This document shows, piece by piece, positions 39,668 through 64,000 of a DNA stretch of 64,000 nucleotides. The notes below the pieces were generated by a model. It had not been told where the DNA came from and did no database searches. It saw only the letters and a list, made by a program, of their open reading frames with translations. A program made the position numbers and the translations under genes. Source of the DNA: a virus (Duplodnaviria; Caudoviricetes); IMG/VR virus record IMGVR_UViG_3300021387_000688; one strand, written 5' to 3'. Each line of letters opens with the position of its first letter. Position 1 is the stretch's first letter.

Positions 39668-39676
39668 ATTTTTTAT

Positions 39677-39749: not shown

Positions 39750-39915
39750 AAACTGAATGGGTAGCCACTGAAAAGTAAATAGACTGTTTATGAAGTAGGG
39801 GTCCAAACAGAGCTTGTCGCTGATTACATATCAAAGAGTTATTAGTCTAGTCAACTAGATTCGGAGATGGTTTGAAGCTAAACAGGATGACAAAGGGCGA
39901 GTCCTGATTTTTTAT

Positions 39916-39999
39916 CGTTCGGTGGCGGAATTGGTAGACGCACTGGACTCAAAATCCAGCGGTGGCAACACCATGAGGGTTCGATTCCCTCCCGGACGA
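39916..39999 (+). tRNA. tRNA-Leu(CAA)
   Basis: CTGGA-CTCAAAA-TCCAG, variable arm. Confidence 0.92.
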
Positions 40000-40129
40000 C
40001 TCAAATCCCTCTTCCTAAAGTTGGGAGAAAAAGTAACTTTCGGATAGCGGTACAGCCGCATCTTTTTTCTATCCAGTATGAAAGTTATGAGGACGGTGAA
40101 AGGCTCCCGTCCATTTTTTTAAGGAAAAG

Positions 40130-40271
40130 AAATTGCACAGAGTGTTCCTATTATTGCTTTGGGAGCCCTGGGTTGTAGGTTCGAGTCCTACCCTGCCAAC
40201 TATTTCAAAAAGTTAAAAACTTTGGCAGGTAGCTCAACTGGTAGAGCAAGGATTTTTACACTTCGCAATTT
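40130..40271 (+). ncRNA. circularly permuted tRNA-Pro-like RNA (YrlA-like) in conserved frame
   Basis: TTGGGA + T-arm + CCTGCCA precede TGGCAGG + D-arm; frame GCACAGAGTGTTCCTAT...TACACTTCGC. Confidence 0.8.
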
Positions 40272-40278
40272 TTATATA

Positions 40279-40346
40279 TGAGGTTTAGCTTAGACTCGGT
40301 TAAAGCAACGTGCACAGAAAGGAGGTTCGATTCCTTCTAACCTCAA
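40279..40346 (+). ncRNA. tRNA-like RNA lacking an anticodon arm
   Basis: intact acceptor (TGAGGTT/AACCTCA), D arm and T arm; only about 14 nt between D and T arms. Confidence 0.6.
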
Positions 40347-40349
40347 GCA

Positions 40350-40791
40350 AAGCCGTAGGGAGTAGGATAACTCTTTAGCTTATAGGTTCAGTACTAACCT
40401 GTGAACTAATCACTCCCGAACTAGGTACAGGAACGAAAACTGAAGTGGGGAAGAAGCGGAGGTTGGATACTGTGGTAATCCTAGAGCATGTGAAAGTAGG
40501 AGAGTTGACTTTGGAGAGTGCCAACTTAATGTTCAACCCTGATCCAAGTATCTCTTCCCTTATAGGAAGGGTACGAAAAATGCATTGGATAGAATTAGAT
40601 GCTCCTACATATAAAAAATGACGATTATCGCACACGAGATGATCAAAAAGGTGCAACAACGGTGGGGAAAGCCCATGCCGGTTAAAAGAGCAGATCTGCG
40701 CGATGTCCTTCGACGGTATCTGCCGTAAGAGGGTAGGGGAACCTTGTAGACAAGGGACTGAAGGGGTGTACTCGATCCGAAAAGTTATCTT
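40350..40791 (+). ncRNA. unassigned large (about 430 nt) structured RNA
   Basis: closing helix AGGATAACT/AGTTATCTT, many internal hairpins, ends in T tract. Confidence 0.55.
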
Positions 40792-40801
40792 TTTTTTTAT
40801 T

Positions 40802-40892
40802 TCAGGATAATTCCTGCAAGGTCCGCGGATGTAGGAAATGGAAACCTTATAGATCAATAAGGAATAGGACGTTCGAATCGTTTGATCCTGAC
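40802..40892 (+). ncRNA. non-canonical tRNA-like RNA
   Basis: TCAGGAT/ATCCTGA acceptor, GTTCGAATC T-loop, 8-bp first arm, CCTTAT/ATAAGG second arm. Confidence 0.5.
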
Positions 40893-41149
40893 TTCACAAC
40901 AGCTGGTGACAATTATCCAGGAACACTTAGAGTCCGCTAAGGTTAGCTGCAACTAACTGGATGCTCAATGTATAGCAAAGACTGTGCAAAGATGACTGGA
41001 AGAAAGAGACACGTGGAAGGGTGTCGGGTAACTTTGCTACCTCCATAACGAGAAACCCGCCGTGATTTGCAGTCAACGATACAGTTTCTCTACTTCCAAT
41101 TTTTGGAGTGATCCATATCGGATTATTAGACATTAAGTCTGAAACATAT

Positions 41150-41232
41150 TGGAGCGTATCTCAGCTGTCTTATAAACAGTCCGGTATAATTCGAGTAATT
41201 GGTGGATGAGGGTTCAACTCCCTCCGCTCCAA
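41150..41232 (+). tRNA. arm-rearranged tRNA-Ile(TAT)-like RNA
   Basis: perfect acceptor and T arm; anticodon arm GCTGT-CTTATAA-ACAGT directly after acceptor; TAATTGGT D-loop-like motif lies 3' of it. Confidence 0.6.
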
Positions 41233-41321
41233 CTATATGTAATGATATCATTACAGGAATAAGATAAAATGGACTACCCCAACATAATCGCGATATGTGG
41301 GTAACGAAAGAGTAGTCAAAA

Positions 41322-41393
41322 TCCGCCGTAGCTCATCTGGTCAGAGCAGCTCTTTTTAAGGGTATGTAGTGGGTTCGACCCCCACCGGTGGTT
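41322..41393 (+). tRNA. tRNA-Lys(TTT), atypical short anticodon stem
   Basis: canonical D and T arms; GCTC-TTTTTAA-GGGT. Confidence 0.55.
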
Positions 41394-41396
41394 TAT

Positions 41397-41693
41397 ATGG
41401 AAAATGCACAGCCAAGAATTAAGTTTAAAAACTTTTGGCTTTGGTTTAAAGATCAAGTAATGCGTAAAAGGGCTTTCTATAATTTCTTTATAAGTAGAAA
41501 TGCTTGGGGAGCTTTTTCTATCAACTCCCACATCAGAGCAAGTACAGGGCAACCAAAAGTAACTTACAATACAGTAGAATCTGCGTTAAGGGCCGCAGAG
41601 AGTATGAGTAAAAAATATAACAAACATTTTTCAACTTATAAATGTTTGTTCTGCGATGGTTACCATGTAGGAAAAAATAGAGATAATAAATAG
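41397..41693 (+). CDS. small basic protein with YxCxxCxxxH motif
   Basis: YKCLFCDGYHVG. Confidence 0.65.
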   Translation: MENAQPRIKFKNFWLWFKDQVMRKRAFYNFFISRNAWGAFSINSHIRASTGQPKVTYNTVESALRAAESMSKKYNKHFSTYKCLFCDGYHVGKNRDNK

Positions 41694-41720
41694 GAGTAGT
41701 TAACAACTACTCCTTTTTTT
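41692..41720 (+). terminator. intrinsic terminator ending array 1 transcript
   Basis: AGGAGTAGTT-AAC-AACTACTCCT + T tract. Confidence 0.8.
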
Positions 41721-41766
41721 ATGCAAATTAAAACTTTTCTACTATATAATTAATAGGAGAATTTAT

Positions 41767-43188
41767 ATGCGTAAGAATTTATTTAAAGAAGCAATACCGG
41801 CAGAAAGGGACCGTAGAGCCGCAGGGGTAAAATACCGCGATTCAAGTGTAATAGATATGCTTCATGTTGAGGATGATACTTCCGGAGCTGCTACTGCTAA
41901 ATTGATTTCTTTCTTAAAGAAAGAAAAATTCAGCGAATACCAAGATTATTTTCGAAAAACAATCAAGCTTTTTGGAGAAAACTATGATGTATATGTTCCT
42001 TATGTATATAAAAAAGGAACATTTACAGTAGTTAGATGGTTTATCGAACCTGGCAAGTACAATAGAACTGCATGGGCGGAATGGTATAATGATGAAGAGG
42101 ATTGGGAATATCTTGATCCATCTTTCGCAAAAATCGTTGAGAGATATGGTCTAAAAAGAATGAAGGCTTACATAGGGGATGATCCTTACTATGGTTTAGG
42201 ACTTCGTATGCAGAATACTGAAATGACTTCTAATGATTTTGTTAATAAATTGTTAGTGGTTTATAATAAACTTGAAAAGGTAAAAGATAGTTACAATACA
42301 ACTAGTCAAATGGATGATAGAGAATACTACACATATAAAGGCAAGTTACCAAATAACAACCTTCAAATAAACGTATTCTATGTAGACGGAGAAAATGGTT
42401 GTACAATTGAATATGATTGTGAAGTATTAGGTGAAGATCTTAAATGCTATGTTGAATCTGAAAATTCTGCAGTCGGTCTAGATCTTAACGAACCTTCTGT
42501 AACAAAACCTTTCTTTGAGGTTTTAGCTGAAGAAGGAATTATTGAAGAGGAAGATGTAGATTCTTTAGCTGAAGAATTTGATAATGGGCCAACTTATAAT
42601 TATCTTCAAATTTTTGATGTAAGTGATTGGCCAAAGTATTTTGAAATGGTAGGGGAATTCTTAAAAGCAGAGGGTTATATAACTGAATACAATGTAGAAG
42701 CTAGTAGAGCCGTAAACTCTCGTAGAAAGAACCGTATTAAGAACAATCCAAATCTTAGACAGCAGTACGAATCCAGAATTTCTAAAATCTCAAGAAGAAT
42801 GAGAGAAGCAGAAGAAGATTGGGATGACCTTGGATACGATGATTCAGATGCAGGTGTAGAAGATTGGGATGATCCTAATGAAGCTTTAGATGGTGAAGAT
42901 TATTTCACTTATGATGATCCTGATTATACAGGAATGAATTCTGGGGAAAGAGCTTATGACCATTACGATTCTGATATGGAAGATGTAATTGCAGATTCAA
43001 TGCCAACCCGTAAAAAGGGATTAGGTATTGGAAAGAAAAGAGGAGACTCTTCATATTTCAATAAGGATTATTTAGACGCCCCAGATATGTGGGATGAAAA
43101 TGGAGACAATGTTCCTGAAGAAATTGAATGGAAGTTGACTAAAAAAGTTGCAGAATCTAAAAAACCTTTCAAAACAAGATTGTATTAA
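41767..43188 (+). CDS. hypothetical protein with acidic C-terminus, possible head-internal protein
   Basis: 473 aa ORF, AGGAG RBS, LFKEA / MREAEE / VAES motifs. Confidence 0.7.
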   Translation: MRKNLFKEAIPAERDRRAAGVKYRDSSVIDMLHVEDDTSGAATAKLISFLKKEKFSEYQDYFRKTIKLFGENYDVYVPYVYKKGTFTVVRWFIEPGKYNRTAWAEWYNDEEDWEYLDPSFAKIVERYGLKRMKAYIGDDPYYGLGLRMQNTEMTSNDFVNKLLVVYNKLEKVKDSYNTTSQMDDREYYTYKGKLPNNNLQINVFYVDGENGCTIEYDCEVLGEDLKCYVESENSAVGLDLNEPSVTKPFFEVLAEEGIIEEEDVDSLAEEFDNGPTYNYLQIFDVSDWPKYFEMVGEFLKAEGYITEYNVEASRAVNSRRKNRIKNNPNLRQQYESRISKISRRMREAEEDWDDLGYDDSDAGVEDWDDPNEALDGEDYFTYDDPDYTGMNSGERAYDHYDSDMEDVIADSMPTRKKGLGIGKKRGDSSYFNKDYLDAPDMWDENGDNVPEEIEWKLTKKVAESKKPFKTRLY

Positions 43189-51641: not shown

Positions 51642-53730
51642 TAATAAATTAATTAAAAAATTATTAAACCTCAAAGAGGATTATACATTGACCTTGGAAG
51701 AAGGTAAAGATGAAGAGGAATTACAAGTACTTTCCGAACAAATTAATTTTGATGAATACTCTAAATTGCTCGCAATATACGACTCAGAAATTTATCCAGC
51801 AACAATAAAAGCTTTTTCTTCTTTAGAAGAAGTAGTAATTTTAAATGGTATTTCAAAAAACATTTCTGGAAGTGATAAACCTAAAGGTAAAGATTTGAAG
51901 GAATTAATAAACTATCTTGAAAAAGTTTATAAAGAAAACCCCAAGGATTTTAAAAAGGCACTTGAAAGTTTTTTATATACAAAATTTGCAGAATTGTTTG
52001 AAACCCAATATAAACTTTACGACAAAAATAATCCCGGAAAGCTTATCAATAAGAAGAAGAATGGTAATGGAAATGCCCCAGAACACCATGTGGTGCTTCA
52101 AAAATCTCAAACTAAAGAAGGAGGAGTATATGAAGAACCAGACATTACAGATATTTATTTCAAAAAGTTTTTACCGGATTTTAGTAAAAAAATAACAGAA
52201 CAAATTAAAGCTCAATTTGAGAAAAAAGAGCCTAAAAAAGAAGAACCTAAGAAGGATAAAGAAGAAGTTTCTGAAAAAGAACAAGAATTAAAAAACATTG
52301 CAGAAAAATTAGGATTGTCGATTGAAGAACCTTCTACTACTCCAGATAAAAAAGATACTAGCGATTTCCAGAAAAAAGCTAGCGCTTTTGAAAGCTTATT
52401 ACAAAAGCAAAACCCTTTAGATATCACTAATGGTGCAATCAAATTATTGGATGCAGCTTCTGAATGTTTTAATGTAGAGGGTGCTCCAAAATCTATAGAA
52501 AATTCTATAAAACCAATTGTAAAAAATTTAGATGAAATGTTGGAACCTTCTGAAGGAGAATTACTCAACGAGGCCAACCCAGAGGATCAATCTGCTAAAA
52601 GCGATGGCATTGTAAATAAAGGTGGAATGGAAATAAAGGCAGAATCTGAGGCAAGTGGAGAAATTCTTAAATTTGCAAGAGAAGGCAAATATATAGAAAT
52701 CATTAACAAGTTGGAGAGCAAGACTGAATTGCATGCATTGGCTTATGCATTAACACTTCTCAGAATGCTAGTCACCCATCCAGATGCTTTTGGTTCTGTA
52801 GGAAAAGTAATTTCGAAAAATAATGATTTGCACGCGGATATGACAAGCGTGTATGTACATTATATGGCAGTGCTTTTCAAAGAATATTTCCATCCAATTT
52901 TCTACAACCCAGATGGTCAGCTTTCTTTCAATATGCATGATGCAAAAGCAGCTGAAACAGCCCTTATTTCTTTCCAAAAACTGATTCAGGCTTCTGCAGA
53001 CAATTTTCCTATAGGTGCAGAGTTTCTTAGCTTTATAAGTGGTAACGGCATGGCAAGAAGCGATAAAGGTAGTACCGGTACTGCTGCGCAAGATTTATCC
53101 CTTGCAATAACGGGTCTTATGGACGCAGCTACAAATTTAGAAAGGAAAAATTTAGATATAACTTCTAAGAAAGAATTATTAAATTGGAGAAAGAAAGATT
53201 GCAAAGCAGCTCACGAAGCATTTGATTCTCAATTAAAGGAAAAATTGGCAAAATGCTTTGAGGAAATGTTGAAAGCTACTTTTACTGTAAAGAAGGGGGA
53301 TAAAGAAATAGAAGTACCTATTTCAAATTACATGTTTGATGTAGAAATCCCTAGACGTTTTAAGAAATGCTTGAATGCAGGAAATCAGGAATTTGAAGAT
53401 TTCATTAAAGCTTATTACGATGAATCTATTATAAAGGATACTAAATCCAAAATATTGAAAAAATATTTTGATGCAGTGGCTGGAACAAAAGAAGACGCAT
53501 CAATAGCTTATAAAGAAAAGGATGCCAACCAAGCAGCAGAAGACGTGGAGAATGACGAAAAGGATTCTTTAAAAGATTTTATGCTTAAAAATGGCTTCTC
53601 TCCAGAAGATGTAAAAAATTCAGAAAATGAAACAGAAGATGAACCGGAAGAAAAATCTCAAGGAGGGGAAGAAGGATCTGAAAATGAAAAACCTGAAACT
53701 AATGAAACCCCTAAGGAAGAGGGGAAATAA
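51628..53730 (+). CDS. large K/E-rich hypothetical protein
   Basis: 700 aa ORF, GAGGAGG RBS. Confidence 0.75.
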   Translation: MKKHNNKLIKKLLNLKEDYTLTLEEGKDEEELQVLSEQINFDEYSKLLAIYDSEIYPATIKAFSSLEEVVILNGISKNISGSDKPKGKDLKELINYLEKVYKENPKDFKKALESFLYTKFAELFETQYKLYDKNNPGKLINKKKNGNGNAPEHHVVLQKSQTKEGGVYEEPDITDIYFKKFLPDFSKKITEQIKAQFEKKEPKKEEPKKDKEEVSEKEQELKNIAEKLGLSIEEPSTTPDKKDTSDFQKKASAFESLLQKQNPLDITNGAIKLLDAASECFNVEGAPKSIENSIKPIVKNLDEMLEPSEGELLNEANPEDQSAKSDGIVNKGGMEIKAESEASGEILKFAREGKYIEIINKLESKTELHALAYALTLLRMLVTHPDAFGSVGKVISKNNDLHADMTSVYVHYMAVLFKEYFHPIFYNPDGQLSFNMHDAKAAETALISFQKLIQASADNFPIGAEFLSFISGNGMARSDKGSTGTAAQDLSLAITGLMDAATNLERKNLDITSKKELLNWRKKDCKAAHEAFDSQLKEKLAKCFEEMLKATFTVKKGDKEIEVPISNYMFDVEIPRRFKKCLNAGNQEFEDFIKAYYDESIIKDTKSKILKKYFDAVAGTKEDASIAYKEKDANQAAEDVENDEKDSLKDFMLKNGFSPEDVKNSENETEDEPEEKSQGGEEGSENEKPETNETPKEEGK

Positions 53731-53769
53731 GTAACCCAAACTATATTAAAAAATAGGAGTCAACATTTT

Positions 53770-54195
53770 ATGAGTGATAAAGTAACTTACGATGACGTAT
53801 ACCAGATAGCCGCTGAAGTTTGCGAAGATATGATTACAAAGTTTCTTCGCAATTTAGTAAAACTTGTACCAGATGCGGAAGAAGAAGTAGATGATTTACA
53901 AGAGTCTCAATATAGGGAATTGCAGGAGTATAGAGCCCAAGTAGGTAAATCTAAGAAGCAGATGAGAGAAGATCTTGTATATGGCAAGAAACCTACAAAG
54001 TCTGTAGATTATGCTCCAGATGAGATTGTAGAAGAAAATGCAGATGATGAATTTGCAAAAATTGCACACCCTGAAACTGACGGAGAAAATTGGAACCCTA
54101 TGATGGGTACAGAAGATGATATTCTTAATCAAATTCCTTTAAAGACTGGTAACCTTGTAGAAGCTCAGATGAATGCAGCGGGAACAGGAAACTAA
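53770..54195 (+). CDS. acidic hypothetical protein
   Basis: AGGAG RBS. Confidence 0.7.
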   Translation: MSDKVTYDDVYQIAAEVCEDMITKFLRNLVKLVPDAEEEVDDLQESQYRELQEYRAQVGKSKKQMREDLVYGKKPTKSVDYAPDEIVEENADDEFAKIAHPETDGENWNPMMGTEDDILNQIPLKTGNLVEAQMNAAGTGN

Positions 54196-54226
54196 CTTAA
54201 TATAAAAGTAAGTTAGGAGATGTACA

Positions 54227-55876
54227 ATGAAACAATCAGATTTAAAGATTCTTATAAAAAAAGTGCAAAACGAATGTGCACTTGAAGAACCTACTAAAAT
54301 AACGTACTATTGGAATGATGATGGAAAATTAGTTTTTAAGCTTTTCTTTGATTCTTTAATTATCCCAGAAGAGCTTATGGTAGATGAGGATAATATTTCA
54401 AAATGCTTCTCTGAACAAAATGTTTATGAATTTGAAGATGACTTTGTAATCAAAGAATTGAATAGAGAAAAAGGCTTTGTAGAAATAATTCCGGACGATC
54501 AGAAGTTTAAAGTTATCAATTCTTATAAGGACTATAACGAAGATGAGAAAGTAGAAAAAGATCATAAAGAAGAATCTGTAGTACGTTTAGCCGGTAATAG
54601 GATTTCAGAAGATTTTGCAAAAACAAAAGGTTTTATTTTGAGAGAATCTGAAGAAGGTGTAGCTGCAAATTCTTATCCATACATTTTCATAGCATTTACA
54701 ATGTATATGTTAAATGATGGTAATAAACAAGAATTTGTAAAATATTTGAATACCCTATTCGAGTTGGCGAAAACGTTTTCAGAAAAGCCAAAATTAAAAT
54801 TAATAATAAATGTACCTCAAACTACAGAACAATTCACTGGGGTAGAAGCCTTTTCGAACTTACCACTCTTGTTTAAGCAAATTGAAAAATTTGAGGACAT
54901 GATTTATATTTTAAATTCAGATAAATGTACAGATATTATAAGAACCGCAGATCCTGCCAAAAGTATATTTTATACTGCGGGTACAGATATGGTATCTTCT
55001 CTACAAAAAGCTGGAGCATCTAAATTTAAAAACAATTCTAAATTATATAATGAAATAGATGAATATTATAAAAAGAATTGTTTAGCAGCTTATAACGCAT
55101 TTTTTGAAAAGAGTAAAAAATCTTATGAAGCAGCTACTAAAGCTGCAGATGCTATAGTAAAAGCCTTTTTGAAGCATTATAATGTCAAAGAACATGCGGC
55201 TCCAGATGCGGTAGCTAAGAAATTTAAAAATTCTCCAGAGTGGCCAAAAGCTTTTGAAGAATATACAGCTATTAAAGATCAGAACCCTCCTTCCGTGGAA
55301 TGGAGGTCTATGCATTTTATAGAGATGTATTTCTCAGAAGGTAAAGATCAAGAACAATTAGAAGATTCTACAGGTTGGAAAGCAGCTCTTAAGGATTTGT
55401 CCAAAATTAATACTAAAGCCATTAAAGACCTTAAAGATTGTTTTAGCAGAGGAACCCCCGTAGGTATAACTACTGTTATGGGTACCTTGGCGAAAGATAC
55501 AGGATCTACTATTGCAAGTTTATTGGCAAATAAGTCAGCCGGGGGGTCTAATAAAAAAGGGGATTATTGGCAAGACGATGGAATGAAGGATGGGGTTTCT
55601 GGAGCGGGTGTAGATTTTGGGGACAAAGAACCTGAAAAGAAAGTAAAAGGAGATTTGATCAATCCTTTATATTTCTTCCTTGTATATATATTCTTTGCAT
55701 CGAATAAAAAACCTTTAAATACCGTAAAAGAAGAATTGACTTTTGATCCTACTAACATAAAGATAAAGAAATCTAGTGAAGAAAATCAATCCAATGAAAA
55801 AGACGCGAACTCTAAAGAAGATACAAAACCTAAAGAACCAACTAAAGATAGAGACGGAAAGAAGGACGAACATTAA
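54227..55876 (+). CDS. large hypothetical protein
   Basis: 549 aa ORF, AGGAG RBS. Confidence 0.75.
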   Translation: MKQSDLKILIKKVQNECALEEPTKITYYWNDDGKLVFKLFFDSLIIPEELMVDEDNISKCFSEQNVYEFEDDFVIKELNREKGFVEIIPDDQKFKVINSYKDYNEDEKVEKDHKEESVVRLAGNRISEDFAKTKGFILRESEEGVAANSYPYIFIAFTMYMLNDGNKQEFVKYLNTLFELAKTFSEKPKLKLIINVPQTTEQFTGVEAFSNLPLLFKQIEKFEDMIYILNSDKCTDIIRTADPAKSIFYTAGTDMVSSLQKAGASKFKNNSKLYNEIDEYYKKNCLAAYNAFFEKSKKSYEAATKAADAIVKAFLKHYNVKEHAAPDAVAKKFKNSPEWPKAFEEYTAIKDQNPPSVEWRSMHFIEMYFSEGKDQEQLEDSTGWKAALKDLSKINTKAIKDLKDCFSRGTPVGITTVMGTLAKDTGSTIASLLANKSAGGSNKKGDYWQDDGMKDGVSGAGVDFGDKEPEKKVKGDLINPLYFFLVYIFFASNKKPLNTVKEELTFDPTNIKIKKSSEENQSNEKDANSKEDTKPKEPTKDRDGKKDEH

Positions 55877-56103
55877 TGTTTATAGAATACAAATGCAAGA
55901 AATGCGGGGCAGAAAGATGTTTTTCTGCCGTACAGAAAGATAAAGTGATTTGTAAAAAATGTGGCAATGAAATGGAGTCGACTCAAGACAATATTAGCAT
56001 TGACCAGTATACTACTCCAGAGGCCAGATATTTGGCAGATGAAGCAATCTATAATACAATAGGAGATAGGTATTCACAGAAGCATAGATTAGAGCATCTG
56101 TAA
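55876..56103 (+). CDS. zinc-ribbon (FmdB-like) protein
   Basis: EYKCKKCG...CKKCG. Confidence 0.7.
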   Translation: MFIEYKCKKCGAERCFSAVQKDKVICKKCGNEMESTQDNISIDQYTTPEARYLADEAIYNTIGDRYSQKHRLEHL

Positions 56104-56114
56104 CTATATAATAT

Positions 56115-58199
56115 ATGGCAAACGATTTAGAAGGACATGACAACAGTAAATTAGCTGATGAAATAAGGAGAACTTCCAGGGTTGGATTATTCCAACGTTT
56201 GGCAGCTCGTTTTGGTTTTGGCGTTAGAAAAGTAGCACCGAAATCTAAACAATCGGATATTAAACTTATTCAGAGGCCAACAGATCAACAACTCAATGTT
56301 AAGAACAGTTCAGAAGAATTGGAACTTATAAGTAAGTTAATGAAAGGCGGGCACATGAGTTCGTCTGTACAAGACTTGTTCCAAGAATGGATGAACGATA
56401 CTCAAACTTCTTATGCAAACATTGAAGAAAGAGAAGAAAGATTAAATGCATTAACTCATATGATCGACAACGATGTATATGCAATGGCTGCAGTAGAACT
56501 TGTTGCAGCTGAAGTTGCTATGTTAACTGAGAATGATGTATTTACTGTTTTAAGTGAAGATGAAAAATGGCAAGAAGAAACTAACAACTTGCTAAACAAT
56601 GTTTGGGGATTTGAACAACCAACTATTTATTCTTTGGCATGGGATTTATTTGCATATGGAGAAGCCTTTCAAGGTAATGAAGTTTCTAGTGCAGGTATTG
56701 TAAGTTTTCAACCACTGAAAACAAACGAAGTTGTAGAGCGTCTTGAATTTAAGCCTATGGAAGTTGCAGACTTCGTAGCACAGATGAATAACTCTCCTCG
56801 TAGTACAGGATTTGCTTTTAGTATTCAAAATGCGTACCAAGGTACTTTTGAAAATACCAACTTGCAATTCAATTGGGGTAACCAATCTAAACATTATCAA
56901 TCGAAGAGTGAATTATTGAAGAATTATCTTACAAACTTAAGTGATACAAGTGCTAATGAATTCTTTACCCCTCACTTACTTGGTTATAGATTATACAATG
57001 ATGAAATGGTAGGTCCATGGCAGATCGTGCACTATAGATATCAAGCAGATACTTCAGAGTTTAAGCCATATGGTAGACCTCCTTTACTTTCTTGTTTGTC
57101 TGCTTTCAAACAGATGCAGAGGCAATTAGGATTGGACGATTTAAGGCAATTACTATCTTTCCCTATTACTCAGTTTGTAGTAAATACAGGTAACACTACA
57201 ACCGCACGTGCATTTGATATAGTAAATACTGTGAAGGAAGAATTTGAAAACGTAGGATTGATGTCTTATTCTTCAGGTATGGAGGGTCCTAGCCTTTGTA
57301 CAAATATTTGGACTTCTAATGACTTACTTGAAATTAAAAAGACAGAAGGAAGTAACCCTTCAGATGCAGGTACAACAGATAAATTAAAATTCTTCCAGGA
57401 CAGGGTAGTAGTAGCTTCTGGTGTACCAAAAACATATTTGGACCCAACTTCAGAAGGTTTCCAGATGTCGGGAGTTGCATTAACAGCTTTGTTCCAGCCA
57501 TTTAGGACAAAGATTGAAACTATTAGACATATCATCTTGGCAGAAGTAGAAGATAGAATTAGGTTGCATTATTCTATTCTTAATAGAGAAGTACCTGATT
57601 TCGTTATTACAATGAATGTATTGAATCCGGTAGCTACAGATGACATGGGTCAAAAGTTGCAATTGGCAGATTCTATTTTGGAAGCAGTTGCAGGATTGTT
57701 ACAAGTAGAAAAAGAAGCTTTACCTCAAGAAGTTAAGAAAGATGTTTTGATGAAATATGCAAACTTCTCTGAAGCCGAATTGGATAAGTACATTGATACT
57801 CTTAAGAAAGAAGGTCCAGAAGAACCTCCTGTAGATAGTGTAAGTGAAGAAGAAGCTGAAACCGGTTTTGGGGATGCAGGTTTCGAAGAGGAAGGTGGTT
57901 TCGAAGAGGAAGGCGGAAGTGAAATGGGTGGAGAAGAAATGGGAGAAAGTTTCTCTACTAGAAGTTATAATAACATAAAACGCCACTTAATCGAAAAGAG
58001 ATATAAGGCTCATAGCGAAGGCGAAATGTTGTATTACTTGACAGAATCTTTAGGTTCTTTGCAAACCCGAAAACATACATGTCACTATTGCCATAAATTC
58101 AATAGCCCATTTAACGAAGAAGCTTCTAATTTTATTAAATCTAAGAAACTTACAAAGCAGAAGTTAACTGAACGTTCTAAAAAAAGTTCTAAAAAATAA
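56115..58199 (+). CDS. portal protein (T4 gp20-like)
   Basis: YGEAF, QIVHYR, PYGRPPL, FFQDRVVVASGVPKTYL; acidic Gly-rich C-terminal extension. Confidence 0.75.
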   Translation: MANDLEGHDNSKLADEIRRTSRVGLFQRLAARFGFGVRKVAPKSKQSDIKLIQRPTDQQLNVKNSSEELELISKLMKGGHMSSSVQDLFQEWMNDTQTSYANIEEREERLNALTHMIDNDVYAMAAVELVAAEVAMLTENDVFTVLSEDEKWQEETNNLLNNVWGFEQPTIYSLAWDLFAYGEAFQGNEVSSAGIVSFQPLKTNEVVERLEFKPMEVADFVAQMNNSPRSTGFAFSIQNAYQGTFENTNLQFNWGNQSKHYQSKSELLKNYLTNLSDTSANEFFTPHLLGYRLYNDEMVGPWQIVHYRYQADTSEFKPYGRPPLLSCLSAFKQMQRQLGLDDLRQLLSFPITQFVVNTGNTTTARAFDIVNTVKEEFENVGLMSYSSGMEGPSLCTNIWTSNDLLEIKKTEGSNPSDAGTTDKLKFFQDRVVVASGVPKTYLDPTSEGFQMSGVALTALFQPFRTKIETIRHIILAEVEDRIRLHYSILNREVPDFVITMNVLNPVATDDMGQKLQLADSILEAVAGLLQVEKEALPQEVKKDVLMKYANFSEAELDKYIDTLKKEGPEEPPVDSVSEEEAETGFGDAGFEEEGGFEEEGGSEMGGEEMGESFSTRSYNNIKRHLIEKRYKAHSEGEMLYYLTESLGSLQTRKHTCHYCHKFNSPFNEEASNFIKSKKLTKQKLTERSKKSSKK

Positions 58200-58266
58200 T
58201 TTCATACCTTAATCTCTTTGCTATAATTAAAAGCATAACAAAGAGATAAGGATGAGGTTACAATAA

Positions 58267-59628
58267 TTGAATCAGTCAATTCCAGAAAACATTAAAACCA
58301 GTTTTGAAACTGCTAACGAATTTCGAATGTTAGCCCCTCTTTCCGTAGCTCAGGGTATGGTTTTAATGGCAGATAATGACTACGAAAACGAAAGCAATCA
58401 AAGACAAAACGCCGCATATATGATGGATCTTATCGCTAATAACGTTCCTCAAATAGAGGAAACTAAAACTTCTAAGAGTGGTAAGAAAACAGTAGAATCT
58501 TATAATAAATATTCTCCAGTATTTACAGAAGCAATGATCAAAGAAATAGAAGCAAAGTATAAAGAGTTGTCTGTTTCTGATGCACATGAATATAGATTCA
58601 AACAAGCTTTGGAGTATATGAAAAACTTCAAGCCTACAATTTCATTAGGTGAAGCATTATATAGACTTTCTTTCTATTTGATTTGTAATGAAAATAACTT
58701 GGCAAAATCTACAAACAATCTTATCCTTTTCGTTCAAAGAATGTTTAGAGATAAAGCAAACAATATGTTAGTAGACTCTGCTATTTTACAAGGTGGACAA
58801 GGTAAATCTACTATACAGAAAGGTTTCTTGCAAGCCGCCAAAGAGATTGGGTTTAATTCTTCTGAATGTCATTTGCCATCTATTTCAGGTGGAGTTCAGG
58901 AAGCATTTGTAAGAAATGAAGTTTGCGTAGATGAGGAAACTCATTTTAGTGCAATTGATATTGACTCATTAAACCGCGTGCTTGATAAATCTGTAGTTAC
59001 CATTAAAGGTAAATATATAAAAGAATGGTCTGCTAAGTCTACAGCGAATGTTTTAGTAGGTACAAACTTTTTGCCAAACGATGTTAATGCAAGACGTTAT
59101 TCAGTTCGTATGGTAGATGAAAATTTCAGGTTGAATGAAAACTTTGGTAGATGGACTATCCCAGGTACTTTAGGGGATATGTATGGAGATAGTTATGATA
59201 GGGTTATTGAATGGACTAAAGAAGGTTGGCTAAATCTTTTCTATTATTGTAATAAATATGATATCAAACCTATTCCATTTACTGAAACTTCTTTCAACTA
59301 CAACCTCCAGTATAGATTAAAAAGAACATTAGATGAAAGCGGCCAATATGAATTAACTATTCAAGATGTTATTAAGTTGTTGGAATTAACTGAAGGTGAT
59401 AGGTTCGATTATAAGAGTAAGCAGCAGTTAAGAAATCAATTGTATATTTTAGCAAATCAGCTTGAACTTCCTATCATCGAAAGGCATCATAACACATATT
59501 CTAAATATGATTGGCATAAAGCTTTGGAGATCGATGAAACTTATTTCGATAAAGATACATTGGAAAAAGTATTCTGTTTCTTCCATCACGAAAGATTCAA
59601 CACCCCAGAATTCGAATCTGTAGTATAA
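58267..59628 (+). CDS. VirE/SF3-helicase-like P-loop NTPase
   Basis: LQGGQGKST, CVDEE, KGKY...ANVLVGTN, ARRY. Confidence 0.65.
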   Translation: MNQSIPENIKTSFETANEFRMLAPLSVAQGMVLMADNDYENESNQRQNAAYMMDLIANNVPQIEETKTSKSGKKTVESYNKYSPVFTEAMIKEIEAKYKELSVSDAHEYRFKQALEYMKNFKPTISLGEALYRLSFYLICNENNLAKSTNNLILFVQRMFRDKANNMLVDSAILQGGQGKSTIQKGFLQAAKEIGFNSSECHLPSISGGVQEAFVRNEVCVDEETHFSAIDIDSLNRVLDKSVVTIKGKYIKEWSAKSTANVLVGTNFLPNDVNARRYSVRMVDENFRLNENFGRWTIPGTLGDMYGDSYDRVIEWTKEGWLNLFYYCNKYDIKPIPFTETSFNYNLQYRLKRTLDESGQYELTIQDVIKLLELTEGDRFDYKSKQQLRNQLYILANQLELPIIERHHNTYSKYDWHKALEIDETYFDKDTLEKVFCFFHHERFNTPEFESVV

Positions 59629-59641
59629 CACTAAATTAAAT

Positions 59642-60490
59642 ATGCGTAAACATTTATTCGAATTTACCTTAATGGATATGGATATATCAGGAGTTACTAG
59701 AAAAGCCATCGAGAAAGATGGATTAGGTAAACTCCGTCTTATTAATGCCAATGTATATGGGGACGATCTAGAACTTTTGTTTGAAATGGAATCTAGTCAC
59801 GATGCTCCTAAACACGTAGATATGCAAGGTAAAGAAAAGCCAGGGTTGAAATATGGTTACGCTTGCGGTATCCGTTTCTTAAAAGCAACTAAAGTATTAA
59901 AGAAAGATGAAAAGTTTGATGAAGATAATTTAAAAAAGGTTTTCGATAAGTGCGATGTTCAAGTGCATTGTGACTGCCCTGCTTTCTACTGGCAAGGAAT
60001 GCATCAAGATGATTCTGCTAACAAGACTGCAAAATATAAATTCCAAGGTACCCCAGGTAATCATAAATGGACTTTAATTCATGCAGATAAAGGAGGAAAA
60101 ACAGGACAAGCTTTATGTAAGCATTTATTCAAATGCCAAGAATGGACTTATGAGCATATACCAGAAGTGTTGGAAAAACTTTCTCTTAAGGAAGAGTTAG
60201 TTGATCCAGAAATACAGCAAGGGATATTAGATAGACTTAGAGAAGTAGAAGATGATATTTGGTGCAAAGATGTAGATGTACCTACAATGGTTGGGTTAGC
60301 ATATGGAAACCTTTTAGGAACAGCCGCCTTTAATATTGTTCTTAATTGGATTGAAGAGAATGCAAATCCAATGGATGAATATCAGGATCAGGATGAGTAT
60401 GTAGATTATTTAAGATCTTTGATAGATCAAATATTGGCTACTTTACCTGAAAGTACTGCAGAAATAATTGCAAAATATTTGTCAAAGTAG
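59642..60490 (+). CDS. SWIM zinc-finger protein
   Basis: VHCDCPAFYW...LCKHL. Confidence 0.75.
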   Translation: MRKHLFEFTLMDMDISGVTRKAIEKDGLGKLRLINANVYGDDLELLFEMESSHDAPKHVDMQGKEKPGLKYGYACGIRFLKATKVLKKDEKFDEDNLKKVFDKCDVQVHCDCPAFYWQGMHQDDSANKTAKYKFQGTPGNHKWTLIHADKGGKTGQALCKHLFKCQEWTYEHIPEVLEKLSLKEELVDPEIQQGILDRLREVEDDIWCKDVDVPTMVGLAYGNLLGTAAFNIVLNWIEENANPMDEYQDQDEYVDYLRSLIDQILATLPESTAEIIAKYLSK

Positions 60491-60560
60491 TTAGAAAACT
60501 CTCCCAGTTGCACTAACTATATTCATTATATAAGATTTATTAGAAAGGAGATTAAATTCA

Positions 60561-60680
60561 ATGTTATCAACTTTAAGAAACATAGCAATTGTAAGTATCA
60601 TTGAATGCGACAGTCCAGTTGTCGTAGCTCCTATTGCATGCGCAGAAGAAATTGCGGATGATGAACCTGATAAAAGTTGA
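60561..60680 (+). CDS. leader peptide of tRNA array 2 (39 aa)
   Basis: MLSTLRNIAIVSIIECDSPVVVAPIACAEEIADDEPDKS; AAGGAG RBS; stop overlaps antiterminator arm. Confidence 0.8.
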   Translation: MLSTLRNIAIVSIIECDSPVVVAPIACAEEIADDEPDKS

Positions 60681-60734
60681 GCCTTATAGTTTTTGTAAAT
60701 TGTAAGGCTCTTCAGAAATGAAGAGCCTTTTTTT
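60679..60734 (+). promoter_or_regulatory. transcription attenuator (antiterminator/terminator) 2
   Basis: GAGCCTTATA pairs with TGTAAGGCTC, competing with terminator AAGGCTCTTCA-GAAA-TGAAGAGCCTT + T tract. Confidence 0.8.
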
Positions 60735-60865
60735 ATCCGATTTTTAATTTTCGGGTAGGAAATAAAAAAGAAAAAGTTTTTTTAACTTTTTCGAAAAAGA
60801 AGGAATTGAAAATTCCTATATTATTAACATAAGAAACAATTAATTAAAAGTTAAAAGTTTCTTAA

Positions 60866-60888
60866 GATCTTTGACAATTTAAGGAAGG
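60866..60888 (+). promoter_or_regulatory. boxA-like antitermination element
   Basis: GATCTTTGACAA-TTTAAGGAAGG just before the first tRNA. Confidence 0.55.
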
Positions 60889-60898
60889 TAAATTATTT

Positions 60899-60971
60899 GC
60901 TCCGTTAGCGCAGTTGGTAGCGCAGCACCCTTACAAGATGACGGTCGGTGGTTCGAGTCCATCACGGAGCA
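60899..60971 (+). tRNA. tRNA-Val(TAC), weak anticodon stem
   Basis: GCTCCGT/ACGGAGC acceptor, CTTACAA loop. Confidence 0.75.
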
Positions 60972-61038
60972 CTTCAATAGTTTGGAAGCAGGTTAGCTTG
61001 AGTCGAAAGATAGAAATAGCAATCGTCCAAACAATTAT

Positions 61039-61110
61039 GGGGCTATAGATCAGTGGTAGTATCGCGACCCTTTCAAGGTTGAGACGCAGGTTCAACTCCT
61101 GCTAGCCCTA
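61039..61110 (+). tRNA. tRNA-Glu(TTC)
   Basis: CGACC-CTTTCAA-GGTTG. Confidence 0.88.
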
Positions 61111-61169
61111 ATAAAAGGCATACGGATAATTCCTTTCCTAGTAATAGGTTCCTTATATCCATAATATTT

Positions 61170-61243
61170 GGTCCTTTGGAGGAGCGGTTTTCTCTCGCCA
61201 CGTTGTCAGCGTGGAGAAACGGGTTCGATTCCCGTAAGGACCG
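61170..61243 (+). tRNA. tRNA-Asp(GTC)
   Basis: CCACG-TTGTCAG-CGTGG. Confidence 0.88.
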
Positions 61244-61244
61244 T

Positions 61245-61316
61245 AGAGGTAAATTGTTGGATCCGTGAAGCCCACAAGGCTGGAGTAACGGCAAGGTTCA
61301 AGTCCTTGTTATCTCT
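61245..61316 (+). ncRNA. degenerate tRNA-like RNA
   Basis: AGAGGTAA/TTATCTCT stem plus CAAGG-TTCAAGT-CCTTG T arm; no recognisable D or anticodon arm. Confidence 0.4.
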
Positions 61317-61327
61317 TTTTATTTTAT

Positions 61328-61401
61328 GGGGGCGTAACTCAGTTGGCTAGAGTGTCAGCTTTGCAAGCTGAAAGTCGAGAGTTCAAATCTCTCCGCTTCC
61401 A
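61328..61401 (+). tRNA. tRNA-Ala(TGC)
   Basis: TCAGC-TTTGCAA-GCTGA, G3:U70. Confidence 0.92.
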
Positions 61402-61585
61402 CTCAGGTTAGTTTCTATGCGACAAGAGAACCTTCTAACCTAGCGAACAGCTAAAATAAAAAAGAATCCGATCTTGAGAGTCTAGTAACTTCGGGCCGGA
61501 AGCCCCATAAGTGAACCAACTCGAAATAATTGATTGATTGACAAGTGTACATAGTCTTTCAATTGATTATTATTTTTAATTACAT

Positions 61586-61662
61586 TGGGGCGTATACCCT
61601 CAGTCTGATAAACTGCAGAAAGGTTAATTGGTTACATGGTGGTTCAATTCCACTCGCCCCAA
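61586..61662 (+). tRNA. arm-rearranged tRNA-Ile(GAT)-like RNA
   Basis: same topology as 41150..41232; anticodon and T arms nearly identical to canonical Ile at 62055. Confidence 0.6.
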
Positions 61663-61664
61663 CT

Positions 61665-61738
61665 AGGCTCGCGACATTGCCGATGTAGTGACTGGTCTGC
61701 AAAACCAAGTGGCGGGGTCTGACTCCCCGGCGGGCTTC
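61665..61738 (+). tRNA. non-canonical tRNA-Cys(GCA)
   Basis: TGGT-CTGCAAA-ACCA; 8-bp acceptor, TCTGACT T-loop, 3-nt-loop first arm. Confidence 0.55.
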
Positions 61739-61749
61739 TTTTAATTTAT

Positions 61750-61821
61750 CGGAAAGTGGATCAAGGGTTGATCGCTTGTTTTGGGAACAAGTCCATGCAG
61801 GTTCGAGTCCTGTCTTTCCGA
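61750..61821 (+). tRNA. tRNA-Pro(TGG)
   Basis: CTTGT-TTTGGGA-ACAAG. Confidence 0.88.
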
Positions 61822-61882
61822 CTCAAAAGTAGTAGTAGTGGTTGCAAACATGAACCTATTGTAGGAAGTTCGAAATTCCTAT

Positions 61883-62045
61883 CGATTGTATAGTGTATGG
61901 AGCACAGGGGCCCCGAGTACTTGACAATAGGGCCTGACGATAGCTTACGACCTAGCGTGGCTAGACGACGGGGTGACAATAAGGCCTGACGATAAAGGAA
62001 ACAGGGCGCCAGGGTGAGTTAAGGTTCGATTCCTTCGTACAGTTG
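61883..62045 (+). ncRNA. tRNA-like RNA with ~100-nt insertion replacing the anticodon loop
   Basis: CGATTGTA/TACAGTTG acceptor, D arm, GGTTCGATTCC T arm; internal 21-nt direct repeat. Confidence 0.55.
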
Positions 62046-62054
62046 TATTTTTAT

Positions 62055-62128
62055 TGTCCAGTAGCGCAAACGGTTAGAGTGTCAGTCTGATAAACTGAAG
62101 GTTGGTGGTTCAATTCCACCCTGGACAA
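62055..62128 (+). tRNA. tRNA-Ile(GAT)
   Basis: TCAGT-CTGATAA-ACTGA. Confidence 0.9.
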
Positions 62129-62271
62129 CTGGGTGCAGCAACGTCTTGGATAGCACGTTACGAGAGCTAACCTAATTGTATAAAGGAGTTAGCTAGAGGA
62201 TATGGTAACATACCTCGTTCTAAGACTAGAGTGTTGGGCGGATAGGGCCGATGGAAGACACTCAATGTTAT

Positions 62272-62345
62272 GGGGCTATAGTGAAGATGGTTATCACGCA
62301 GCACTGTCACTGCTGAGATCGCGGGTTCGAATCTCGCTAGTCCCG
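62272..62345 (+). tRNA. tRNA-Asp(GTC), second copy
   Basis: CAGCA-CTGTCAC-TGCTG. Confidence 0.9.
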
Positions 62346-62446
62346 CTAAAAAAGTATTCGGTTAGATGAAATTGAGTTAAGCTTTCTCAAACTGATTAGA
62401 GTAAACGATAGGTAGGTACCTACTATATCACATCTAACTTGTTTAT

Positions 62447-62518
62447 GGGCCGGTAGCCTAATTGGTAAGGCGCCTGATTTGCACTCAGGTCTATCGGGTT
62501 CGAGTCCCGCCGTGTCCA
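62447..62518 (+). tRNA. tRNA-Ala(TGC), second copy
   Basis: CCTGA-TTTGCAC-TCAGG; irregular acceptor. Confidence 0.8.
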
Positions 62519-62601
62519 CTAAAAAATGGTTAATCTTTGTAAGTTTGACCGCCTTTCCCTACTATACTAGTTCTGAGGGTTTTGGATTGACTTACAAATA
62601 T

Positions 62602-62673
62602 GGGGCTATAGATCAGTGGTAGTATCGCCTCCCTTTCAAGGAGGAGACCCAGGTTCAACTCCTGGTAGCCCTA
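62602..62673 (+). tRNA. tRNA-Glu(TTC), second copy
   Basis: CCTCC-CTTTCAA-GGAGG. Confidence 0.9.
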
Positions 62674-62716
62674 ATCAAAGTTTTCCGGAGCCTTTCTAAT
62701 GGAAAAAGGTCCACCA

Positions 62717-62790
62717 CGGGCAGTAGACCAGCTGGTTAAGCCGCTGCGCCTGGGACGCAGAGATCGGGGGTTCGATTCCCTCCTGCCCGA
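62717..62790 (+). tRNA. tRNA-Pro(TGG) with C33
   Basis: CTGCG-CCTGGGA-CGCAG. Confidence 0.8.
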
Positions 62791-62909
62791 CTAACGTACC
62801 TGATAAGTTTTCTTACGTAAAGGTTGATTGTAACAAGAAATGTAGTTACATCGTAAAAGTGATGAAGGAAGGCCCGCTAACAGCTTAATAATTGATAGCG
62901 GATCCATAT

Positions 62910-62982
62910 GGGCTTGTAGCTCAATAGGTAGAGCGTTTGAATGGCATTCAAAAGGTAGTCGGTTCGAAGCCGATCAGGTCCA
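62910..62982 (+). tRNA. tRNA-Ala(GGC)
   Basis: TTTGA-ATGGCAT-TCAAA, G3:U70. Confidence 0.88.
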
Positions 62983-63204
62983 CGAAAGCTAAGCTGTAAA
63001 GTTCCCTGCAGACTTGGCAATATTGTTTGACGGTATCAAGTGTGAATACTTCGCACAAGTCAAAACCGAAAAGAGTAATTTGCTTTTCAACTTTGATAAA
63101 AACCGGCCTTTCGTAAGCGCCTACGAATAGAAAAGGGAACACCTTTTTTGAAAATATTTGGATATGTATGCTATATTACAAATCCAAATTATAATAGAAC
63201 GTTT

Positions 63205-63278
63205 CGATCCTTAACTCAATTGGCTAGAGTGCCTCTCCTACACGGAGGAAGTTCTAGGTTCAAGTCCTAGAGGATCGA
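63205..63278 (+). tRNA. tRNA-Val(TAC) with C33
   Basis: CCTCT-CCTACAC-GGAGG. Confidence 0.82.
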
Positions 63279-63280
63279 CT

Positions 63281-63356
63281 AGCGGGCGAGTGAAACGGAA
63301 TTATCATGCTAGCCTCATAAGCTAGAGATACTGGTGTTCGACTCCCAGGTCCGCCA
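63281..63356 (+). tRNA. tRNA with CAT anticodon (Met or Ile2)
   Basis: CTAGC-CTCATAA-GCTAG; 1:72 mismatch. Confidence 0.75.
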
Positions 63357-63363
63357 TATACAT

Positions 63364-63437
63364 TTCGGGGTTGTACAGTTGGCTAGTATGTCGGGCTCAT
63401 AACCCGAAGGTCAGTGGTTCGAGTCCACTCCCCGAGT
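63364..63437 (+). tRNA. tRNA-Met(CAT), initiator-type anticodon stem
   Basis: TCGGG-CTCATAA-CCCGA (three G:C pairs). Confidence 0.85.
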
Positions 63438-63484
63438 CTATATCCGTTACTTTATTACTAAGTAAAGTAATAGGAGAGAGTTTT

Positions 63485-63880
63485 ATGAAAAAGTTTTTAA
63501 CAATTGTTTTTGCATTTATTCTTACCGCAACTGTTTTTGCTGAAACTTATAAAGTAAAAGAAGTTTACGGTAAAGTAATGTTCGAAGACGGTACCAGGAT
63601 CTTTGAAGGACAAGAATTGGAAGGAGAAGCTTCTATTAAAGTGTTCCCTCAATCCCATATTATCCTTGTACAGGATGGCAAGATTAGAAAAATTAATGCT
63701 AGTCAAAATGGTACAGTAAATGAACTTTATGCAAAAGCATTTAAGTCTAACGGACTTAAGAAAATGAAAATTGCAGATGCAAGTCATATTGCACCTCCTT
63801 CTGAAGGTACAAGAAAAGGAGTAGCAACTGCAGCTTCAAGGGCTTCTGAAGCAAAAGAAGACTTTGAATGGGATGAATAA
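63485..63880 (+). CDS. exported protein with signal peptide inside tRNA array 2
   Basis: true start MKKFLTIVFAFILTATVFA after GGAGAG; beta-rich FecR-N-like segment. Confidence 0.7.
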   Translation: MKKFLTIVFAFILTATVFAETYKVKEVYGKVMFEDGTRIFEGQELEGEASIKVFPQSHIILVQDGKIRKINASQNGTVNELYAKAFKSNGLKKMKIADASHIAPPSEGTRKGVATAASRASEAKEDFEWDE

Positions 63881-63889
63881 GTAAAAAGT

Positions 63890-63946
63890 AAACGCACAAA
63901 GTGTTCCTATTTTATACATGATTTGGTTTGTATACACTTCGCGTTT
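63890..63946 (+). ncRNA. third copy of the GTGTTCCTAT frame, lacking a tRNA-like insert
   Basis: AAACGCACAAAGTGTTCCTAT...TACACTTCGCGTTT. Confidence 0.7.
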
Positions 63947-63954
63947 TTTTGTTT

Positions 63955-64000
63955 GGAGGAGTGGCCCAGTGGTTACGGCGGGTGCCTGCTAAGCATCTGG
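63955..64000 (+). tRNA. tRNA-Ser(GCT), truncated by window end
   Basis: GGAGGAG-TGGCCCAGTGG..., GGTGC-CTGCTAA-GCATC. Confidence 0.85.

Follow-up and report, generated by a model that had tools for sequence, protein, structure and literature searches.

We analysed a window of 64,000 nt, the whole stretch of DNA taken from the virus record IMGVR_UViG_3300021387_000688 (Duplodnaviria; Caudoviricetes), with a focus on a short leader open reading frame (ORF) that precedes the second of its two transfer RNA (tRNA) arrays. The window DNA is AT-rich (33% G+C) and carries portal-like and RecA genes as well as the arrays. Positions 53485-64000 are 100% identical to a 397,621-bp contig of an ENA metagenome assembly (L033), and the stretch is present in public runs of sheep and other animal gut metagenomes. 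The window is part of a sheep-rumen phage genome of ~398 kb that holds four units, each consisting of a leader and a tRNA array. Units 1 and 2 lie inside the window, and units 3 and 4 lie 8-11 kb beyond its end (in L033 and the overlapping locus L038). The features of unit 2 are the following:

60494-60523, plus strand: putative leader-2 promoter, with GAAAAC at 60494-60499, the box TTGCACTAACTATATT at 60508-60523 and a -10-like CTATATT at 60517-60523
60545-60550, plus strand: Shine-Dalgarno sequence AAGGAG, 10 nt 5' of the ATG, read directly from the sequence
60561-60680, plus strand: leader ORF 2, 39 codons plus TGA (60678-60680), peptide MLSTLRNIAIVSIIECDSPVVVAPIACAEEIADDEPDKS
60679-60710, plus strand: antiterminator hairpin, with the 5' arm at 60679-60692, the loop UUGU and the 3' arm at 60697-60710
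60704-60736, plus strand: intrinsic terminator AAGGCTCTTCA-GAAA-TGAAGAGCCTT, a perfect 11-bp stem with a GAAA loop and T7; -17.3 kcal/mol
60793-60822, plus strand: second putative promoter, of the consensus type, with GAAAAA at 60793-60798 and CTATATT at 60816-60822, between the terminator and the first tRNA
60899-64000, plus strand: tRNA array 2, with Val-TAC at 60899 as its first gene, extending past the window end; it contains Val-TAC (two), Glu-TTC (two), Asp-GTC (two), Ala-TGC (two), Ala-GGC, Ile-GAT, an Ile-GAT-like gene, Cys-GCA, Pro-TGG (two), CAT tRNAs (two), a gene for a secreted protein of 131 amino acids (aa) and Ser-GCT

The initial annotation had described an ORF of 39 codons preceded by the ribosome-binding site AAGGAG. 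Both were found where listed above, the ORF with the sequence that had been quoted, and the same ORF is annotated as a gene by the automatic caller in the identical contig. The CTATATT lies 38 nt 5' of the ATG. The box TTGCACTAACTATATT is identical at leaders 2, 3 and 4, and relatives keep it as CACTAACTATATT.

The Val, Glu, Asp, Ala, Pro, Ile and Met/CAT tRNAs of array 2 were called by ARAGORN. The Cys-GCA gene (61665-61737) was detected by Rfam only, where it scores just as tRNA-Sec-like (30.9 bits). Ser-GCT starts at 63955 and is cut by the window end, and it is complete in L033. The tRNA list of the initial annotation is correct. Beyond the window, L033 continues the array in the same orientation with Leu-TAA and Glu-CTC, followed by a terminator ~2.5 kb past the window end.

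The codons of leader 2 match the tRNAs of array 2. A recount of codons 8-39 gave six Ile, five Ala, four Val, four Glu, four Asp, three Pro, two Cys, three Ser and one Lys, so that 31 of 32 encode the amino acids that had been claimed. Also as claimed, the three Ser codons in this span are all AGT. Over the entire leader, AGT accounts for three of four Ser codons, compared with a share of 26% for AGY in the genome. Of the 38 residues after the start, 28 belong to the array amino-acid set (V, E, D, A, I, C, P and M; binomial P=3.9e-5, with the composition of 41 long window ORFs as the null). By this measure, leader 2 ranked first among 210 small ATG ORFs in the window. None of 13,304 32-residue segments of real proteins reached the 28 matches of codons 8-39, the maximum being 25 of 32. 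When Ser-GCT was included, 26 of the 38 leader codons were read by the array under strict wobble rules, and 31 of 38 if U34 reads whole family boxes. The match of leader 2 to its array lies at the amino-acid level. The earlier statement that the codons mirror the array holds for the amino acids; the synonymous choice within unit 2 alone is not significant (P=0.25 strict, 0.06 relaxed).

The second part of the unit is a pair of mutually exclusive hairpins. The GAAA-capped terminator with its T tract was present as annotated. A stop-overlapping antiterminator had also been proposed, and it does exist, with 14 bp instead of 10. The 14 bp include two G-U pairs, and the hairpin reaches -19.1 kcal/mol before the 3' arm of the terminator exists. 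Its 5' arm starts at the GA of the TGA stop, and its 3' arm shares 60704-60710 with the 5' arm of the terminator. We folded the RNA with the ribosome at different positions. With -15 to +14 around the stop masked (a ribosome on the stop codon), the terminator folded. Moving the ribosome to 6 or 10 codons before the stop let the antiterminator fold and reduced the terminator to 4 bp. This agrees with the dependence on ribosome position that had been predicted. In the ribosome-free fold, the antiterminator belongs to the minimum-free-energy structure of the leader. Hence, the default without translation would be read-through, unlike in trp. The assignment to the trp/his/ilv class of attenuator geometry is therefore retained, except for the untranslated default.

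A competitor hairpin as good as this one is not expected by chance: among 3000 shuffles of the 32 nt upstream, none gave an equal or better one. Moreover, a strong upstream competitor occurred at only two of the 18 terminator-like hairpins in the window, namely those preceding the two tRNA arrays. The competitor energies were -19.1 and -15.4 kcal/mol at these two and -0.7 to -10.0 kcal/mol at the others. A 'terminator' with a competitor hairpin on the minus strand at 51357 was dismissed, as it lies antisense within a gene.

The other three units of the genome are built in the same way. Their features are the following:

37571-37591, plus strand: putative promoter box of unit 1, TTGCGCTAATTATAAACATTA, with 17 of 21 bases equal to the unit-2 box, among them every one of the 17 positions fixed in the search pattern
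37605-37706, plus strand: leader ORF of unit 1, 33 codons, MKNVLNRSLVLLQQQIAITLPLYRNRYYWRDKG
37698-37767, plus strand: antiterminator and terminator region of unit 1, with the terminator at 37736-37767, a GAAA loop and a T tract
38041-41394, plus strand: tRNA array 1, with Tyr-GTA (two), Leu-TAA, Arg-TCT, Gln-TTG, Arg-CCT (two), Trp-CCA, Leu-CAA, Ile-TAT-like and Lys-TTT
L033, 18462-18581: leader of unit 3, with the terminator at 18607-18628 and an array of Gly (four), Leu-TAG/AAG, Ser-GGA/TGA, Gln-CTG and Arg-ACG
L038, 10690-10806: leader of unit 4, with an array of Thr (four), His, Asn (two), Phe (two), Lys (five), Met and Arg-TCG

In unit 1, the stop codon sits within the antiterminator arm AAGGGGUGA. 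The stretch AAGGGGU, which includes the U of the stop codon, pairs with ACCCCUU (-15.4 kcal/mol; 22 of 3000 shuffles were as good). Codons for Leu (TTR), Arg (AGR), Gln (CAA), Tyr, Trp, Lys and Ile (ATA) abound in leader 1, and precisely these are served by the tRNAs of array 1. Array 1 reads 21 of the 32 codons of this leader (P=1.1e-5), and the synonymous choice is significant by itself (P=1.3e-3).

When the codons of each leader were compared with the decoding set of each array, the 4x4 matrix was diagonal, with 21/32, 26/38, 17/38 and 33/37 codons read by the leader's own array (P from 1.1e-5 to 9e-14). All off-diagonal cells were at or below expectation. The true pairing of leaders and arrays gave 97 matches, and the next best of the 24 pairings gave 65. 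Enrichment against genome codon usage, a check already suggested in the initial annotation, was assessed with an exact test in which the peptides are fixed and the synonymous codons are redrawn from genome usage. For the four leaders, it was highly significant (P=1.8e-5 strict, 5.8e-8 relaxed). As the match persists with the peptides fixed, a function of the peptide is no explanation for the synonymous choice. The pattern is visible in the Leu, Arg, Gln and Ser codons: those of leader 1 are all TTR, AGR or CAA, and those of leader 3 are all CTN, CGT, CAG or TCN. Each of the two patterns fits the isoacceptors of the leader's own array. The T tract and the first tRNA are only 15 nt apart in unit 3 and 12 nt apart in unit 4. 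A gap of this size has no room for a second promoter; arrays 3 and 4 are therefore accessible only by way of the terminator, with the leader promoter as the sole promoter 5' of them.

The first half of leader 3 (L033 18462-18518; MMFISNETFETLIVTQNHM) uses amino acids of unit 4 and shares MM...NHM with leader 4 (L038 10690-10746). This suggests that leader 3 may have arisen by duplication of a unit-4-type leader, with its 3' sensing half rewritten afterwards.

Relatives of the phage were available at two distances. The 95% identical locus L001 has an intact leader 2 with the replacements A9T, V11A and K38I and two synonymous changes, and its terminator is identical. Leader 1 of the 98% identical locus L032 differs by one synonymous change (TTA to TTG). 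Two diverged relatives, L042 and L043, were found via an 81-aa protein encoded between arrays 3 and 4 (73% and 55% identity), and the comparison of co-variation covers units 3 and 4. Both keep the architecture: a CACTAACTATATT box, AAGGAG, an ORF of 34-39 codons, a stop-adjacent antiterminator, a terminator and then arrays of different content.

Where the arrays differ, the leaders differ accordingly. Tyr, Ser and Cys tRNAs open the unit-3 arrays of L042 and L043, whose leaders contain four Tyr and three Cys codons. Unit 3 of the window genome has no Tyr or Cys tRNAs and no Tyr or Cys leader codons; here, unit 1 holds the Tyr tRNAs and codons, and unit 2 holds the Cys tRNA and codons. Similarly, unit 4 of L042 has Ile-GAT in the array and two ATT codons in the leader, and unit 4 of the window genome has neither. 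The co-variation of leader composition with array content that the initial annotation had suggested looking for is thus seen in the gains of Tyr, Cys and Ile. The antiterminator is kept by compensatory change (CCUUGUACAA/UUGUACAAGG in L042 became CCUUGUGCAA/UUGCACAAGG in L043), and the terminator stems differ among the three genomes yet still pair. In all eight units examined, the antiterminator has -14 to -20 kcal/mol and abuts or contains the stop codon. Loss of the ORF or the codon bias next to a retained terminator was seen neither in the three further units nor in the two diverged relatives.

Unit 2 is quite probably a ribosome-mediated (leader-peptide) attenuator of read-through into tRNA array 2. 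The computational evidence supports the attenuator interpretation, and does so strongly for the four-unit system. That the leader is translated and that ribosome and polymerase are coupled is inferred, as are the kind of signal and how large the effect is. Transcription would start ~30 nt 5' of the ATG, from the CTATATT promoter at 60517, and a ribosome following the polymerase would translate the 39 leader codons. Fast decoding of the Ile, Ala, Val, Glu, Asp, Pro, Cys and Ser (AGY) codons would bring the ribosome to the TGA. Its footprint at the stop codon would then cover 60679-60692, the terminator at 60704-60736 would form, and the transcript would end before the tRNAs. The ribosome would lag if decoding slows at any of these codons, as would happen when charged cognate tRNAs are scarce. 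The 14-bp antiterminator would then form first, no terminator would follow, and the polymerase would enter the array. New phage tRNAs would relieve the stall, which would close a negative feedback loop. The scarcity may be caused by degradation of host tRNAs or by their poor fit to the codon usage of the phage. As a signal, a shortage of decodable tRNAs makes more sense than amino-acid starvation, because starvation cannot be cured by extra tRNA. Each array is probably gated by its own leader, with more of a tRNA set being made when its codons are read slowly.

A real switch could also respond to something more general. The read-through default of the ribosome-free fold, together with the promoter box and geometry shared by the four units, would suit a sensor of overall translation capacity, in which the loading and running of any ribosome is what counts and scarce or blocked ribosomes induce all arrays together. 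Such a sensor needs no codon matching, yet the leaders match their own arrays to the level of isoacceptors and are poor in the codons of the other arrays, and in the relatives the codon match follows the gain of tRNAs. We consider this explanation unlikely.

Several observations weigh against the attenuator reading of unit 2, and they concern the leader, the RNA structure, the promoters and the transcript data. The synonymous choice of leader 2 alone is not significant, as given above, and its first seven codons and AAA38 do not match array 2. The change A9T in L001 swaps a matching codon for a non-matching one, and the comparison of unit 2 is limited to near-identical relatives such as this one. 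No anti-antiterminator or clear pause element was identified, and none of the hairpins inside the ORF involves the antiterminator's 5' arm. Termination would therefore require a ribosome within ~50 nt of the polymerase. If the host is a Firmicute with fast 'runaway' transcription, coupling of ribosome and polymerase is not assured.

The promoters add to this. The motif GAAAAA-N17-CTATATT recurs immediately 5' of many window genes, and some of the genes with CTATATT are leaderless, with the ATG exactly 6 nt 3' of the motif (CTATATTATTAACATG). From this arrangement in the sequence, we take the CTATATT motif to be the likely promoter of the phage. Copies of the consensus are located as follows:

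18953, 35296, 36135 and 53741, and on the minus strand 44603, 9125 and 5733, among others: GAAAAA-N17-CTATATT

The promoter-like site at 60816, which the initial annotation had raised as a caveat, is present and matches this consensus. The putative promoter at 60793-60822 is in fact closer to the consensus than the leader-2 promoter, and it resembles the promoters of leaderless genes (CTATATTATTAACATG), with ATA replacing ATG. Further CTATATT copies lie at 37817, 3' of terminator 1, and within the arrays at 39664 and 63171. Given the sites at 60793-60822, 39664 and 63171, array 2 could be transcribed without passage through the attenuator. An attenuator with no promoter between itself and its genes is therefore not what is found in unit 1 (37817) or unit 2 (60793-60822). 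The downstream consensus promoter also means that the attenuator is not the sole control of array 2 and is instead one of two inputs. What the attenuators of units 1 and 2 contribute can only come on top of transcription from other promoters. A scan for the sigma-70 consensus was uninformative for this phage (16 sites against 15 expected).

The same consensus promoter 3' of the terminator is what one would expect if the leader were an ordinary small phage gene. The terminator would then insulate a tRNA operon driven from 60816, and the codon match and the competitor hairpin would be incidental. The call of the ORF by an automatic gene caller is in line with this, as is the synonymous choice of unit 2 when taken alone. 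It would have to be reconciled with a match in all four leader-array pairs and in three more pairs from two relatives, and with strong competitor hairpins that occur only at the terminators preceding tRNA arrays. A second promoter would not fit in units 3 and 4. Leader 4 is of low complexity (T9 N8 K5 F5) and unlikely to be a folded protein, and leader 2 of L001 shows three non-synonymous changes in 39 codons. An ordinary gene is hence very unlikely, and the attenuator remains our reading of the unit.

RNA from the locus was found in assembled metatranscriptome contigs, which show no 3' ends, strand or transcript levels. A sheep-gut RNA run gave contigs covering 60551-60693 and 60738-61048, with the upstream gene uncovered. 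In a run from a second study, a contig covering 60354-61111 had a depth of 88, compared with 5 for the upstream gene. These contigs fit, if weakly, a promoter 5' of the leader and RNA past the terminator, upstream of the expected start from the second promoter. Holes in contig cover (for example 60694-60737 in run X8) carry no meaning and were rejected as evidence.

The short contig that covers only 60551-60693 would also suit a terminated leader transcript, or its peptide, that is itself the product and acts in trans as a small RNA or peptide, with attenuation of the tRNAs being secondary. A precedent has been reported in rnTrpL and peTrpL of Sinorhizobium (PMC7968998, PMC7298713). The four leader sequences are unrelated beyond their composition, no target is indicated by the data, and the match of codons to arrays would be left unexplained. 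We regard a trans-acting product as highly improbable and return to attenuation in cis.

Considered as a system, the four units may form a four-channel tRNA homeostat. The four leaders would split all 20 amino acids among themselves, with Leu, Arg, Ser and Gln divided by isoacceptor, and each would independently induce its own block when ribosomes stall. We give even chances to this extended claim, including that it represents a widespread and so far undescribed mode of regulation.

The mechanism is that of the trp/his/ilv class, and the regulated target is new. The closest systems are the multivalent leaders of ilvGMEDA (Ile, Leu and Val codons) and thr (Thr and Ile codons), together with trpL, hisL, leuL and pheL. 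Unit 2 shares with these enterobacterial leaders a short promoter-proximal ORF with a ribosome-binding site and regulatory codons, a terminator and a mutually exclusive antiterminator. In both, the position of the ribosome picks the fold, and one leader can serve several amino acids. The phage units differ in that they target tRNA genes and not biosynthetic enzymes, that the panel comprises 7-9 amino acids and most of the peptide, and that four units partition the whole decoding set. Moreover, no 1:2 hairpin (anti-antiterminator or pause) was found in them, and their untranslated state is read-through and not termination.

The leader-peptide attenuator of pheST in Escherichia coli controls a component of translation via the decoding of cognate codons. 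It is cellular, responds to one amino acid and acts on a synthetase, whereas the phage units are viral and act on tRNA genes. T-boxes are similar in their terminator/antiterminator control, their response to tRNA status and their translation-related genes. They differ in that a T-box binds uncharged tRNA directly and has no ORF, whereas the sensor of the phage unit would be the ribosome. A cmscan search (E<=1; 60000-64000 and 37400-42000) found no Rfam leader family (Trp_leader, His_leader, Leu_leader, Thr_leader and others) and no T-box. It returned only tRNA matches, a weak plastid untranslated region and GOLLD, YrlA and sX4 matches. The initial annotation knew of no account of such attenuators on phage tRNA arrays, and our full-text literature search found no description of leader-peptide attenuators before phage tRNA genes within the texts covered.

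The units bear on two open questions: the reason for the dozens of tRNA genes in large phages, and how the time of their expression is decided. If the proposed mechanism is true, the phage gauges the speed of decoding codon by codon and replenishes only the tRNAs that are missing. Loss of host tRNAs by anticodon-nuclease defence or host shut-off would be detected and repaired channel by channel. The carriage of tRNAs by phages would be tied to both codon-usage mismatch and tRNA-cleaving defences of the host, with a simple reporter for the two. Leader-peptide attenuation would be extended from biosynthesis and synthetase genes to tRNA genes, and the units would be compact parts of natural origin for sensing whether chosen tRNAs are available.

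Searches for further relatives were made in several collections. In the INPHARED phage collection, DNA and protein queries (the latter with the upstream gene of 282 aa) gave generic tRNA matches or none. In IMG/VR, no relative was found via the 282-aa protein, RecA, a RecA alignment or the exact terminator. The 19 IMG/VR matches to the promoter-box pattern were chance matches: 18 of the 19 loci had no tRNA, and one had a single tRNA on the opposite strand. A box-pattern scan of JGI metagenomes returned an identical sequence (L040) and one chance match within a coding region (L041). The synteny of RecA and the 282-aa gene is not retained in relatives, and the loci L002-L012 yielded no arrays.

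The arrays contain a number of unusual elements. In array 2, two aberrant tRNAs lie in tandem: the Ile-GAT-like gene at 61586-61662, called by Rfam, which has a long variable region and no normal D arm, and the Cys-GCA gene at 61665-61737. The stretch 61884-62045 was rejected as a Ser-GCT tRNA. It is a tRNA-like element with an insertion of ~85 nt; a T arm and an acceptor stem are present, and it was called neither by Rfam nor by standard ARAGORN. The insertion carries a 20-nt direct repeat (GACAATAGGGCCTGACGATA / GACAATAAGGCCTGACGATA). The 131-aa protein encoded inside array 2 (63485-63880) has a signal peptide, 89 metagenome homologues (E<=1e-3) and no Pfam family; one homologue, P0128, lies on a 1-kb contig without context. 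Between 61100 and 62800, individual tRNA genes of array 2 are missing, duplicated or replaced in the contigs of related strains, and L001 is rearranged. The array content turns over fast even among ~95% identical strains.

In unit 1, a non-coding stretch of 275 nt (37767-38040) separates terminator 1 from the first tRNA of array 1. It includes the CTATATT at 37817 and is 98% conserved in L032. Array 1 contains a GOLLD-like RNA at 38991-39442 (Rfam RF02032, 97.8 bits, E=1.5e-25, below the gathering score of 150), which encloses the tRNA-Arg(CCT) at 39073-39147. A YrlA-like (Y RNA-like) match follows at 40151-40274 (RF02553, 43.8 bits, E=1.4e-7), with a weak tRNA-like match directly after it (40280-40345). 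In arrays 4 and 3, ARAGORN called tRNAs with the four-base anticodons ACTT and GTGA (L038 12270-12343 and L043 9730-9806), which are possibly of the frameshift-suppressor type or degenerate.

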